The notes under the pieces are model-generated. The model saw nothing but the letters and a program-made list of their open reading frames with translations. It had not been told where the DNA came from and made no database searches. Below are positions 12,717-17,483 of a DNA stretch of 64,000 nt, piece after piece. Made by a program: the position numbers and the translations under genes. The stretch comes from Escherichia coli (GTDB lineage: Bacteria; Pseudomonadota; Gammaproteobacteria; Enterobacterales; Enterobacteriaceae): NCBI RefSeq assembly GCF_002854065.1, contig NZ_CP024147.1; one strand, 5' to 3'. The stretch's first letter is position 1; the number at the start of each line of letters is the position of its first letter.

Positions 12717-13213
12717 ATGGCTGATAGTTTCCAGAATGAAGTGCCAAAGGCACGTATTAATCTAAAACTTGACCTGCATACGGGGGGGCCAGCAAGAAAA
12801 CTGAGCTTCCCCTGAAATTACTGGTGGCGGGAGACTTCAGTAATGGGCAGGAGACTGCGCCGCTATCAGATCGCGGAAAAGTAAATCTGAACAAAAATAA
12901 TTTTGACGCAGTCCTCTCCGAATATTCCCCAAAAGTTAATCTGACCGTTAAAAACACACTTGCTGATGATGGTAGCGAAGACAACATCTCTCTGATATTC
13001 CAGAGCATGAAGGATTTCACCCCTGAGCAGGTTTCCCGGCAAATTCCTCAGCTGAAGGCAATGCTTTCTATGCGTAACCTGCTTCGCGATTTAAAAGCGA
13101 ACTTGCTGGACAATCAGGCTTTCCGAAAGGAACTGGAAAAAATTCTGCTCGACCCGGCATTAAGCGCAGAACTCAGAGCCGAACTTTCAGCCCTGGCCCC
13201 AAAACACTCCTAA
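12717..13213 (+). pseudogene. tssB: Type VI secretion sheath small subunit TssB (VipA), interrupted by a -1 frameshift in a poly-G tract
   Basis: Frame 0 gives MADSFQNEVPKARINLKLDLHTGG then stops at 12813; the adjacent frame continues ASKKTELPLKLLVAGDFSNGQ..., matching the TssB consensus; shift lies in the 7-G run at 12782-12788. Confidence 0.8.
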
Positions 13214-13245
13214 CCGTCACCCGGTAATCACGGATTAACCAAGGA

Positions 13246-14793
13246 ATGCTCATGTCTGTAAAAAATGAAAACGCCGCGGCTGGCGCAAGCGTTGTGCTGG
13301 AACGTCCTGCTGCAGGCGGGGTTTATGCGTCCCTGTTTGAAAAAATTAATCTTAACCCGGTGTCTGAACTGAGCGCGCTGGATATCTGGCAGGACGCGCA
13401 GGCGATGTCAGATGCGACCGCTGATGAACGTTTAACGGCGGGGATGCAGGTGTTTCTGGAGTGCCTGACAAAATCGGGCTCAAAGGTTGAAAAACTCGAC
13501 AAAAACCTGATTGACCATCATATCGCGGAGCTGGACTACCAGATTAGTCGCCAGCTGGATGCGGTAATGCATAGCGAAGAATTCCAGGCGGTGGAGAGCC
13601 TGTGGCGCGGCGTGAAATCGCTGGTCGACAAAACAGATTTCCGCCAGAACGTGAAGGTTGAACTGCTGGATATGTCAAAAGAAGATCTGCGTCAGGACTT
13701 CGAAGATAGCCCAGAAATCATCCAGAGCAGACTGTATAAACATACATATATTGATGAGTACGACACCCCGGGTGGAGAGCCGATCGCTGCGCTGATTTCC
13801 GCTTACGAATTTGATGCGTCTGCGCAGGATGTCGCGCTGCTGCGTAATATATCAAAAGTCTCCGCCGCAGCGCATATGCCGTTTATCGGCTCTGCCGGCC
13901 CGAAATTTTTCCTCAAAGATTCGATGGAGGAAGTGGCGGCCATCAAAGACATTGGTAACTACTTCGACCGTGCGGAGTACATCAAGTGGAAATCCTTCCG
14001 TGAGACGGACGATGCCCGTTATATCGGTCTGGTGATGCCGCGCGTGCTGGGTCGCCTGCCGTATGGCCCGGATACTGTGCCGGTTCGTAGCTTCAACTAC
14101 GTGGAAGAAGTGAAAGGCCCCGATCACGATAAATATCTGTGGACCAACGCCTCGTTTGCCTTTGCATCCAACATGGTACGCAGCTTCATCAACAACGGCT
14201 GGTGTGTACAAATCCGTGGCCCGCAGGCCGGTGGTGCCGTCCAGGATCTGCCAATCCATCTGTACGATCTGGGCACCGGCAACCAGGTGAAGATCCCGTC
14301 AGAAGTGATGATCCCGGAAACCCGCGAATTTGAATTCGCTAACCTTGGCTTCATTCCGCTGTCCTACTACAAGAACCGCGACTACGCGTGCTTCTTCTCG
14401 GCGAACTCCACGCAGAAACCGGCGCTGTATGACACTGCGGATGCAACGGCTAACAGCCGCATTAATGCCCGTCTGCCTTACATCTTCCTGCTGTCGCGTA
14501 TCGCACACTACCTGAAGCTGATTCAGCGCGAAAATATCGGCACCACCAAAGACCGTCGTCTGCTGGAATTAGAACTCAACACCTGGGTTCGCAGTCTGGT
14601 GACCGAAATGACTGACCCGGGCGACGAGCTTCAGGCCTCTCACCCGCTGCGTGACGCGAAAGTGGTGGTGGAAGATATCGAAGACAACCCGGGCTTCTTC
14701 CGCGTCCGACTGTTCGCTATTCCGCACTTCCAGGTAGAAGGGATGGACGTCAACCTGTCACTGGTTTCTCAGATGCCAAAAGCCAAGTCGTAA
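13246..14793 (+). CDS. tssC: Type VI secretion sheath large subunit TssC (VipB)
   Basis: 515-aa ORF with typical TssC length and conserved blocks; immediately follows tssB. Confidence 0.85.
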   Translation: MLMSVKNENAAAGASVVLERPAAGGVYASLFEKINLNPVSELSALDIWQDAQAMSDATADERLTAGMQVFLECLTKSGSKVEKLDKNLIDHHIAELDYQISRQLDAVMHSEEFQAVESLWRGVKSLVDKTDFRQNVKVELLDMSKEDLRQDFEDSPEIIQSRLYKHTYIDEYDTPGGEPIAALISAYEFDASAQDVALLRNISKVSAAAHMPFIGSAGPKFFLKDSMEEVAAIKDIGNYFDRAEYIKWKSFRETDDARYIGLVMPRVLGRLPYGPDTVPVRSFNYVEEVKGPDHDKYLWTNASFAFASNMVRSFINNGWCVQIRGPQAGGAVQDLPIHLYDLGTGNQVKIPSEVMIPETREFEFANLGFIPLSYYKNRDYACFFSANSTQKPALYDTADATANSRINARLPYIFLLSRIAHYLKLIQRENIGTTKDRRLLELELNTWVRSLVTEMTDPGDELQASHPLRDAKVVVEDIEDNPGFFRVRLFAIPHFQVEGMDVNLSLVSQMPKAKS

Positions 14794-16149: not shown

Positions 16150-17123
16150 ATAAACCCGAACTCAGCCAGATAGAACGTATCTTCTACCCAGGCTGGCTGA
16201 TGGCCAGCCAGTTGCGGAGCGGCCAGGAAGTTCGCGACGGGGAAGGGCTTTACCGCCGGGCTTGCCGTTTGGTGAAAGAGGCAAAAGCTGCGCTCATGGA
16301 GGCAGGCTACAGCGACATCAGCCGCGACCATATGGTGTATGCCTTGTGTGCGCTGCTTGATGAGAGCGTGATGAACAGGGGCACCACCGATGATGGCTAC
16401 CTGACCTGGCACCGAGACCCGCTACCCGGGAGGTCTGACATGGTGGATAAAACGCAGCATTACCGTAATCACTGGGCACAGTGGACGGTTGCCGAAATTA
16501 CGTTTGTGGAACAACACTATGGTCAGTTGGACGTGCGATTTTCAGGAGAAGCCAGCGAGCAGGGATTAACAACTTTTCTTGATGCTTTTGATGAGTCCAG
16601 TCACTGGGTTTTAGTTGTACCATTATCACCCGGCTTGCTTCCTTTTAAAAAATGCCGGGTAACAACGGCGGAACTGGCGGAAACAACATTACCCGCGTCG
16701 CAAGTGCTGGTGGTTGAAAATGAGCAGTGTTTGCATCATCTTCCAGCATTATCTGACACTATCGCGATTTTAGGCTGTGGCCTGGACGTGCAATGGCTAT
16801 CCAGTTCTGTTCTGGATGAAAAACGCGTTGCCTATTGGGGGGACATGGATAGCTGGGGACTACTGATGCTGGCGAGAGCCAGGCGTTGTCGTCCGACGCT
16901 TGATGCCCTGCATATGAACCGTGAGTTGTTTGAGCAGTATGTCAGTCATAGCGCCGTTCCAGAACCGGTCATAGCGAAGGAAGCTGTACCTGATGGCTTG
17001 CTTAACGAGGAGGCCGATTTTTATCGCTACTTAACCCGTTTACCGCGTGGTCGTCTGGAGCAGGAGTTTTTGCCTGTGGGGATTGCGGAAGAGGTGCTTC
17101 TCAGGTGGGGAAAAGAGAGTTAA
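16146..17123 (+). CDS. tssL: TssL/DotU-like N-terminal domain fused to an unrelated C-terminal segment; probably a chimeric or degenerate ORF
   Basis: N-terminal region carries the DotU-like ALCALLDESVMN motif; the rest of the 325-aa ORF lacks the expected C-terminal transmembrane anchor; start overlaps the tssK stop (ATGA). Confidence 0.5.
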   Translation: MNKPELSQIERIFYPGWLMASQLRSGQEVRDGEGLYRRACRLVKEAKAALMEAGYSDISRDHMVYALCALLDESVMNRGTTDDGYLTWHRDPLPGRSDMVDKTQHYRNHWAQWTVAEITFVEQHYGQLDVRFSGEASEQGLTTFLDAFDESSHWVLVVPLSPGLLPFKKCRVTTAELAETTLPASQVLVVENEQCLHHLPALSDTIAILGCGLDVQWLSSSVLDEKRVAYWGDMDSWGLLMLARARRCRPTLDALHMNRELFEQYVSHSAVPEPVIAKEAVPDGLLNEEADFYRYLTRLPRGRLEQEFLPVGIAEEVLLRWGKES

Positions 17124-17483
17124 AAAAGTCATGCTTGTTCTGGAAGGTTATTTACGCGGTATTTTGGTAGTGGTTGTTGCGAAAAGTCTGCGTTGATGGT
17201 CCTGATACCTTACCGGGTAGAGGGACTTTGCATCAGTCAGTTTAGATACTGTGGCAACTGTCGCCTTTAGATGGACAAACGCATAAATTATTAACCTATT
17301 GAATTTCTTGTTTTCAGGCAGCAGAGAGAAGGTATATCAGAGGGTACTGAGGTGTATAAACGTCACGAACATCCGTGAAAAGGCGAAAAAAACCAGCCAA
17401 TAGATAATGCTTTGCAATGGCCAGAAATCTACCGTAGCCAGAAAGTGAAAAAGCCCCGCTTTGCAGCGAGGCCTTATGAATAG

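Follow-up and report, generated by a model that had tools for sequence, protein, structure and literature searches.

A probable inactive stump of a T6SS-1-type cluster beside pheV in Escherichia coli

The region adjoining pheV in this strain is very probably the inactive 5' stump of a type VI secretion system (T6SS) cluster of the T6SS-1 type, resembling sci-1 of enteroaggregative E. coli (EAEC) and reduced by a single 26.69-kb deletion and a frameshift. The gene order tssB-tssC-tssK-tssL and the similarity to sci-1, which has been assigned to the T6SS-1 sub-family (PMC5048182), place the remnant in this group. Within the window, by which we mean the whole 64-kb stretch of DNA analyzed, the T6SS stretch (12717-16425; Table 1) comprises tssB, tssC, tssK and the start of tssL. 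A first-pass annotation had counted four genes here, with the sheath and baseplate components mostly intact; two of the four, tssC and tssK, are indeed full length, but tssB is a pseudogene and the fourth open reading frame (ORF) is not tssL. The absence of hcp, vgrG, clpV and tssM that it reported was confirmed for the rest of the window, which contains core genes and three IS1 copies, and the functional core set (TssA-M, Hcp, VgrG and ClpV) is incomplete in the window's gene content. Since the tube, spike, membrane complex, baseplate wedge and recycling ATPase are not encoded here, no secretion machine would be expected to assemble, and the function of this T6SS has presumably been lost. The remnant is ordinary genome decay, with no new system, and offers a clean, base-resolved case of the decay of an accessory weapon system in E. 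coli. It is important to consider that a gene-presence screen would count this strain as positive for tssB, tssC, tssK and tssL, though no T6SS could be built from them.

Table 1. Positions of the T6SS remnant and associated features in the window
Feature	Positions	Strand	Remarks
IS1 truncating the usher gene	8651-9419	-	One end of the 35.9-kb inversion
Fimbrial remnant of the T6SS block	9420-12172	+	Usher 3' end (to 10058) and three small ORFs
AT-rich native 5' region of the T6SS operon	12173-12716	+	Adjoins tssB in all intact copies
tssB pseudogene	12717-13213	+	G8-to-G7 frameshift at 12782-12788; premature TGA at 12813-12815 (codon 33)
tssC, sheath large subunit, intact, 515 aa	13246-14793	+	TIGR03355
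tssK, baseplate subunit, intact, 445 aa	14812-16149	+	TIGR03353
tssL 5' fragment, codons 1-93 of 217	16146-16425	+	DotU match; alignment to 33F4 tssL stops at 16425
Deletion junction, microhomology TAC (3 bp)	16423-16425		Three-way alignment of the window, 33F4 tssL side and 33F4 vasL side
Linker, island sequence normally 3' of vasL	16426-16526	+	GGGAGG, and ATG at 16440
'jetD, 3' fragment of Wadjet jetD (JetD residues 178-375)	16527-17123	+	JetD_C
Native pheV-downstream spacer	17124-17483		pheV intrinsic terminator at 17450-17475, minus strand
pheV, tRNA-Phe(GAA), intact	17484-17559	-	ARAGORN, Rfam
Inverted IS1 partner	44508-45276	+	Other end of the inversion
Displaced left block end	45277-47407	-	First 53 bp of flp, winged-helix regulator gene, sequence to glcA

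The deletion and the state of the retained genes

An intact T6SS locus was found in E. coli 33F4 and PapRG-06-5, as part of a Tad-fimbria-T6SS block that, in 33F4/32F4/33E and PapRG-06-5, is 98-99% identical at the nucleotide level to each segment retained in the window. The upstream spacer, the gene order and the 'jetD relic adjoining pheV are all alike, whereas in the window 26.69 kb of T6SS genes are missing, tssB is frameshifted, IS1 stands in place of 14.2 kb comprising the Tad genes and the beginning of the fimbrial operon, and the remnant lies on a 35.9-kb inversion. Comparison with the intact copies allowed the erosion by deletion proposed in the first-pass annotation to be mapped to the base, as a single event. 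The junction links tssL codon 93 to the base following the vasL stop codon (33F4 reference coordinates 24327 and 51005), and the deleted span of 26,693 bp starts at tssL codon 94 and ends with the vasL stop codon. Lost with it were tagL, hcp, clpV, vgrG, the lipase effector and immunity genes, PAAR, tssM, tssA and tssF/G/J/E. In an ancestor of the strain, one illegitimate recombination event at the 3-bp microhomology would have removed this segment, and a one-base slip in the G8 run would also have knocked out tssB. The same junction and the G7 frameshift occur in CUWW06 (Thailand) and 100416 (Gambia); an assembly artefact was rejected on the identity of the junction in these two independent complete genomes.

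Profile searches with the four ORFs returned matches to TssB, TssC and TssK, whereas the fourth ORF scored under the TssL cut-off. In the sequence comparison, the tssB homopolymer is a G7 run where intact alleles have G8. The residual ORF matches TIGR03358 only at profile positions 37-158 of 160, with no uninterrupted frame across the profile, and PGAP labels the gene as frameshifted in both CUWW06 and 100416. Slippage from G7 back to G8 could in principle restore it. TssC and TssK match their profiles over the whole length (678 and 406 bits, respectively) and differ from the 33F4 alleles by one and four amino acids; TssC is identical in CUWW06 and 100416, and the two genes together show zero differences among the three carriers. 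On the branch separating the carriers from the intact alleles, there are 43 synonymous and 3 nonsynonymous changes in tssC and tssK, which indicates that selection acted while the divergence arose; no decay is visible after the loss. The identity of these genes, together with the junction and frameshift held in common with CUWW06 and 100416, suggests that the loss is recent, and only for this reason do tssC and tssK look intact.

The spacer upstream of tssB, given as an AT-rich stretch of 545 bp in the first-pass annotation, measures 544 bp and has 36% GC, compared to 55% in the T6SS genes. Its interpretation as a deletion scar was ruled out, as it is present in every intact copy. The 250 to 380 bp nearest to tssB are ~85% conserved in Citrobacter, Kosakonia and Salmonella arizonae. 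The promoter scan gave two promoter-like matches on the plus strand of the spacer, no more than expected by chance.

The pheV side and the glcA-pheV interval

The ORF run stops at 17123, 360 bp from the 3' end of tRNA-Phe, as first annotated, and the intervening spacer is also found between jetD and pheV in MB53. Rfam searches over the whole window found only the tRNA at the coordinates of the remnant, and promoter and terminator scans stayed at chance level except for the pheV terminator. Since the 3' side of pheV is a classic target for integration, the position of the remnant would fit a genomic island mobilized by an integrase that, together with the attachment repeat, was later lost by erosion, and a T6SS of the same sub-family does lie inside a true GI-pheV, as defined in PMC11537424, in EAEC 55989 and in 100416. 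The window does lack both elements, as first noted: family searches with the ORFs outside the regions collinear to known core loci gave core genes and IS1 only, with no integrase, and the 23-nt 3' end of pheV, searched with up to 3 mismatches, occurs once in the 64 kb, as the tRNA itself. Integrase-type GI-pheV islands have a P4-type integrase gene (intP4) beside pheV and a direct repeat (attR) of 19-23 bp at their far boundary, in the same chromosomal neighborhood; here, the ORFs adjoining pheV are 'jetD and tssK, and no attR is present. Where such an island is present (100416, 33F4, TB06052 and 23CRST027), the T6SS block lies beyond its 22/23-bp attR, outside the mobile island, and the remnant of 100416 is accordingly distal to the attR of its GI-pheV. 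Furthermore, in PapRG-06-5 only 'jetD and the 360-bp spacer separate the intact T6SS from pheV, likewise with no integrase; the window retains the terminator of pheV and its native downstream sequence; and on the pheV side the block ends inside jetD, at codon 178, and not at the tRNA. No intact relative bounded by pheV repeats and with its own integrase was seen among the ~12 carriers in 5,426 complete genomes. An eroded pheV island, as the first-pass annotation had it, is therefore very unlikely. The block looks instead like a replacement within the variable interval between glcA and pheV, judging from these sequence comparisons, which would explain the missing integrase and attachment repeat. 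A tRNA-adjoining position alone does not imply integrase-mediated acquisition.

Replacement within this interval can be set beside its contents elsewhere. A rare block of ~51 kb with Tad pilus, fimbrial and T6SS genes fills the interval in a few E. coli lineages, and other strains have jetABCD or a lone jetD there. In K-12, the type II secretion relics mentioned in the first-pass annotation (yghD-yghE-yghF-yghG-pppA-yghJ) were confirmed between pheV and glcA; this T2SS-beta relic occupies the same interval with unrelated gene content, and K-12 homology to the window extends only 11 bp beyond pheV and 43 bp beyond glcA. The block carriers include 8 with eroded copies, which derive from at least four separate events, compared with two intact lineages. 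The deletions of TB06052 and UTME-3 have endpoints at most 2 bp apart, equivalent to window position 17216, and a repeat search found no hairpin or repeat near this position to explain the common endpoint. One could speculate, with little confidence, that the glcA-pheV interval is a replacement hotspot with three or more alternative occupants (T2SS-beta relic, Wadjet, Tad-fimbria-T6SS) in which the T6SS has been repeatedly inactivated, through breakage at a specific site or selection against this T6SS in E. coli. If this were true, the near-coincidence of the TB06052 and UTME-3 endpoints would speak for one of these two causes and not for random decay. GI-pheV and the T6SS of 55989 have been described in the literature, in which we found nothing on the Tad-fimbria-T6SS block.

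Relation to other T6SS clusters

The order of sci-1 in EAEC, which in 55989 lies in GI-pheV and carries a Tle1 effector, is tssB-tssC-tssK-tssL-tagL-hcp-clpV...vgrG-lipase-PAAR...tssM-tssA...tssF, as in the intact block. The sci-1 genes of 55989 and 042 have 74.7-76.7% nucleotide identity to those of the window, and they lie inside an integrase-type island, whereas the block type of the window lies outside attR. Clusters in Citrobacter amalonaticus, Kosakonia, Cedecea, Enterobacter and Salmonella arizonae have a TssK with 89-95% protein identity and are collinear in their T6SS genes, with fimbrial and Tad genes unlinked to the T6SS. Among 100,044 species-representative genomes, no direct donor was found, the best match having 87% nucleotide identity. 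A composite query for other T6SS types matched 1,517 genomes by megablast and 3,692 in the distant mode.

The full-length ORFs of tssC and tssK raise the question of whether these genes were kept to supply a second T6SS elsewhere in the genome. The strain may carry such a system beyond the window, and the GI-pheV of the related 100416 contains a complete sci-1 cluster, 22 kb from the remnant. Nevertheless, the window contains no GI-pheV, the cognate tssB is frameshifted, and CUWW06, searched at blastn sensitivity, has no further tssC-like gene. Additionally, the remnant TssC and TssK are only 87% and 75% identical to the sci-1 proteins, and sheath, tube and ClpV interactions are machine-specific between sci-1 and sci-2 of EAEC (PMC5048182). 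The lack of tssC and tssK substitutions among the carriers fits recency and not selection. Consequently, we consider such a supply role very improbable, and the inactive stump is the reading retained here.

The chimeric fourth ORF and the later IS1 rearrangements

The fourth ORF (16146-17123) is one open frame of 325 aa composed of TssL codons 1-93, a 34-codon linker and the C-terminal 198 residues of JetD, a protein of the anti-plasmid system Wadjet (JetABCD). Its match to the TssL profile NF038239 spans positions 1-89 of 207 and, at 105.8 bits, falls short of the cut-off of 180; a full-length TssL of the short DotU family, including the C-terminal membrane anchor, is thus not encoded, and the transmembrane anchor is missing from the fragment, as is most of the cytoplasmic domain. 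In Pfam searches, residues 11-93 match DotU and residues 148-317 match JetD_C (E = 1.8e-40). Residues 128-325 are identical to residues 178-375 of MB53 JetD at 195/198 positions (98%), and the linker has no homology to the full-length jetD of that strain. The window contains no jetA, jetB or jetC and lacks codons 1-177 of jetD; FHI_NMBU_11, in contrast, has jetABCD between glcA and pheV (jetA with an internal stop and jetC fragmented in the assembly). 'jetD is already truncated in the intact islands, being called partial by PGAP in 33F4 and PapRG-06-5, and the deletion would have joined the tssL start in frame to this pre-existing relic by chance. That the chimera is a new functional fusion protein is scarcely credible: its single open frame of 325 codons, its complete JetD_C domain and its retention in three strains can be cited in favor, but an in-frame junction is a one-in-three chance with a linker of only 34 codons, the partner genes jetABC are missing, the relic occurs unfused in intact islands with its own Shine-Dalgarno sequence and ATG, the TssL part has no anchor, and retention in three near-identical carriers says little. 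The "tssL" call on this ORF could also be miscounted as a defense gene.

The microhomology deletion and the homopolymer slip preceded the IS1 deletions and the inversion, as each of the three carriers has IS1 junctions different from the others. IS1 would later have caused the loss of the Tad genes and of some fimbrial genes, as well as the inversion of a 35.9-kb segment that contains the remnant and pheV. The fimbrial remnant is collinear with 33F4 reference positions 17320-20073, and its usher fragment is a weak TcfC match (profile positions 675-862 of 895). The 9-10-bp IS1 target, which lies in the gene between speB and speA, is divided between the two IS1 copies at the inversion ends. The displaced left end of the block matches 33F4 L002 positions 1-3081 and 100416 in reverse orientation, and K-12 homology resumes at 47408.

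Broken genes in the remnant beside pheV

The first-pass annotation described four T6SS genes abutting pheV whose products should match the TssB, TssC, TssK and TssL profiles. The position and the run of four plus-strand reading frames upstream of tRNA-Phe stand, and tssC and tssK match in full; the other two genes are broken, tssB by a frameshift and tssL by fusion into a tssL'-'jetD chimera. In tssB (ACGGGGGGGCC), a G7 run at 12782-12788 replaces the G8 of the intact alleles of 33F4 (a strain with the intact block, used here as reference) and TB06052, and the frame consequently enters a TGA codon. 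What remains as an ORF (12824-13213) covers the TssB profile only from position 37 onward. Among these clusters only the E. coli allele has the G8 run; relatives from Citrobacter, Kosakonia, Enterobacter and Salmonella show G5-G6 interrupted by other bases, so the E. coli tssB is unusually slippage-prone.

The fourth frame was ruled out as tssL, since it scored 105.8 bits against the TssL model (cut-off 180) and carries a C-terminal part of JetD. Its Pfam domains are DotU over residues 11-93 and JetD_C over 148-317, and residues 128-325 are identical at 195 of 198 positions to residues 178-375 of the full JetD of E. coli MB53. As claimed earlier, 360 bp separate the end of the run from the tRNA 3' end, and the spacer at 12173-12716 is AT-rich (36% GC).

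Features of the remnant and the flanking insertion sequences in the window
Feature	Position	Strand	Evidence or remark
IS1	8651-9419		Inverted relative to the second copy
tssB, broken	start 12717	plus	Frameshift; TGA at 12813-12815
tssC	13246-14793	plus	Full-length profile match, 678 bits
tssK	14812-16149	plus	Full-length profile match, 406 bits
Fourth ORF, 325 aa	16146-17123	plus	DotU and JetD_C (Pfam)
pheV terminator	17450-17475		Within the 360-bp spacer
tRNA-Phe(GAA), pheV	17484-17559	minus	ARAGORN and Rfam
IS1	44508-45276		Inverted relative to the first copy

The deletion, its age and the IS1 rearrangements

The window aligns to the tssL side of 33F4 up to 16425 and to its vasL side from about 16413, and 26,693 bp are missing. 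Base-by-base comparison gave the junction ...GACCCGC-TAC-CCGGGAGG..., in which TAC is common to tssL codons 93/94 and to the three bases immediately downstream of the vasL stop. By chance the post-vasL sequence, with its GGGAGG and an ATG at 16440, continues the tssL reading frame, and this created the chimeric ORF.

Both the junction and the G7 run are also present in CUWW06 (wastewater, Thailand) and 100416 (stool, Gambia), where PGAP marks a frameshift in tssB and splits the fourth ORF into two partial pseudogenes, DotU and JetD. In tssC and tssK the three carriers do not differ, so no decay has accumulated since inactivation, and the branch separating them from the intact alleles of these genes holds 43 synonymous and 3 nonsynonymous changes, indicating that the carrier allele diverged under purifying selection. 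Judged from these sequences, the T6SS loss is recent, which explains why tssC and tssK still look intact. The cluster in the window is thus, as far as its sequence can tell, a recent, well-explained and non-functional T6SS stump, of value mainly for annotation.

The IS1 junctions differ among the three carriers, which dates these events after the T6SS deletion: reference positions 3082-17319 are missing from the window, 3082-15432 from CUWW06 and 8796-19938 from 100416. In the window, two mutually inverted IS1 copies split between them the 9-10-bp target of a single insertion, in a small gene between speB and speA, indicating that the 35.9-kb segment 9420-44507 has been inverted. This segment contains both remnants, fimbrial and T6SS, together with pheV and core genes through speA, including speC and metK. 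The inversion accounts for the position of the island's left end (flp', regulator, glcA), which is found reversed at 45277-49133. A third IS1 (1555-2323) shares 98.96% identity with the two inverted copies and is flanked by cmtB and a prohibitin-family gene. In the fimbrial remnant (9420-12172), IS1 leaves only the last 213 codons of the usher, and the three ORFs downstream of it (about 236, 296 and 169 aa) had no NCBIfam match. The Rfam sRNA matches in the window, C0719 (49214-49435, between glcA and glcB), naRNA4 (29480-29550) and ES036 (3633-3675), are ordinary core features.

Intact relatives and recurrent erosion

A megablast search for this T6SS variant showed that very few of 5,426 complete E. 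coli genomes carry it. The proposed comparison with complete loci yielded an intact locus in 33F4, 32F4 and 33E (a single Swiss farm) and in PapRG-06-5 (a Gambian baboon isolate). Its first part comprises, in this order, glcA, a winged-helix regulator, the Flp/Tad pilus operon, a fimbrial operon with a TcfC-type usher, and the AT-rich spacer. Next comes the T6SS, first as tssB-tssC-tssK-tssL-tagL-hcp-clpV with Rhs and immunity genes, vgrG, lipase and PAAR genes, and then as tssM-tssA, tssF-tssG-tssJ-tssE, a GIY-YIG fragment and vasL. The locus terminates with the 3' fragment 'jetD, already partial there; in PapRG-06-5 pheV directly follows it, as in the window.

The comparison also reached EAEC sci-1, of the T6SS-1 sub-family (PMC5048182), which has the same gene order at 74.7-76.7% nucleotide identity (protein identity 87% for TssC and 75% for TssK). 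Proteins of Citrobacter amalonaticus, Kosakonia, Cedecea and Enterobacter share 89-95% identity with TssK. Among species-representative genomes no direct donor emerged; DNA identity reached 87% at most there, and, unlike in the block, the fimbrial and Tad genes are unlinked to the T6SS.

The block occurs in about 12 of the 5,426 genomes, and in eight of these it is eroded, through at least four separate events. TB06052 retains tssB-tssC-tssK-tssL' fused to a tagL fragment, giving a 'TssL' of 254 aa that includes a partial OmpA-like tail; UTME-3 retains only 'tssM' and 'tssA beside pheV; and 23CRST027, 23CRST031, ECNB21-M121 and JX21CE8 retain IS1-'tssG-tssJ-tssE-vasL-'jetD. The pheV-side deletion ends of TB06052 (L005 16757/16758) and UTME-3 (L009 20000/20001) coincide within 2 bp, at the equivalent of window 17216, between TA and GAGGGACTTTGC. 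The two copies eroded independently. Their other deletion ends lie 17 kb apart. Microhomology at the two deletions is 2-4 bp only, and no repeat or hairpin accounting for the coincidence was found locally. The TB06052 tagL fragment behind tssL (L005 16603-16761; 159 bp) is 91% identical to 33F4 between flanks at 99.6%, which hints at recombination with a paralogue.

Island type and neighboring T6SS

The remnant had been read as a pheV island eroded by deletions and lacking an integrase or attachment repeat. Erosion is confirmed by the mapped deletion, and neither an integrase nor a second copy of the pheV 3'-end repeat was found in the window; the kind of island was misread, the block not being of the integrase type. 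Next to the remnant in 100416 comes an imperfect 22/23-nt copy of the pheV 3' end, and past this repeat lies GI-pheV, whose contents include yee and flu modules as well as a complete sci-1 T6SS. This arrangement agrees with the published GI-pheV structure, in which intP4 sits beside pheV and the opposite end is marked by a 19-23-bp attR (PMC11537424); the remnant is therefore outside attR.

Furthermore, the pheV-side boundary of the block falls inside jetD, at codon 178. The same glcA-pheV interval is occupied in a few E. coli by Wadjet genes, either a jetABCD operon (FHI_NMBU_11, L014 4334-11019; in its assembly jetA is interrupted by a stop codon and jetC is in fragments) or a lone full-length jetD (MB53, L006 4154-5281), and, as noted previously, by a type II secretion relic in K-12 (yghD-yghJ). 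A jetD-plus-spacer query matched about 29 of the 5,426 genomes at ≥95% identity, some only over the pheV-proximal spacer. The interval may be a replacement hotspot, in which case the absent integrase and att repeat require no special explanation.

As for a second T6SS, a search at blastn sensitivity that detects tssC in 3,692 of the 5,426 genomes revealed no further tssC-like sequence in CUWW06, the closest complete genome. The sci-1 T6SS of 100416 lies in GI-pheV, which the window lacks, and published work found the Hcp-TssB and ClpV-TssC contacts of sci-1 and sci-2 to be specific to each machine (PMC5048182). In 100416 (L098 10250-37081), the sci-1-type system with Tle1/Tli1 lies about 22 kb from the dead remnant, placing two T6SS-1 sub-family clusters in tandem at pheV, one intact and one dead.
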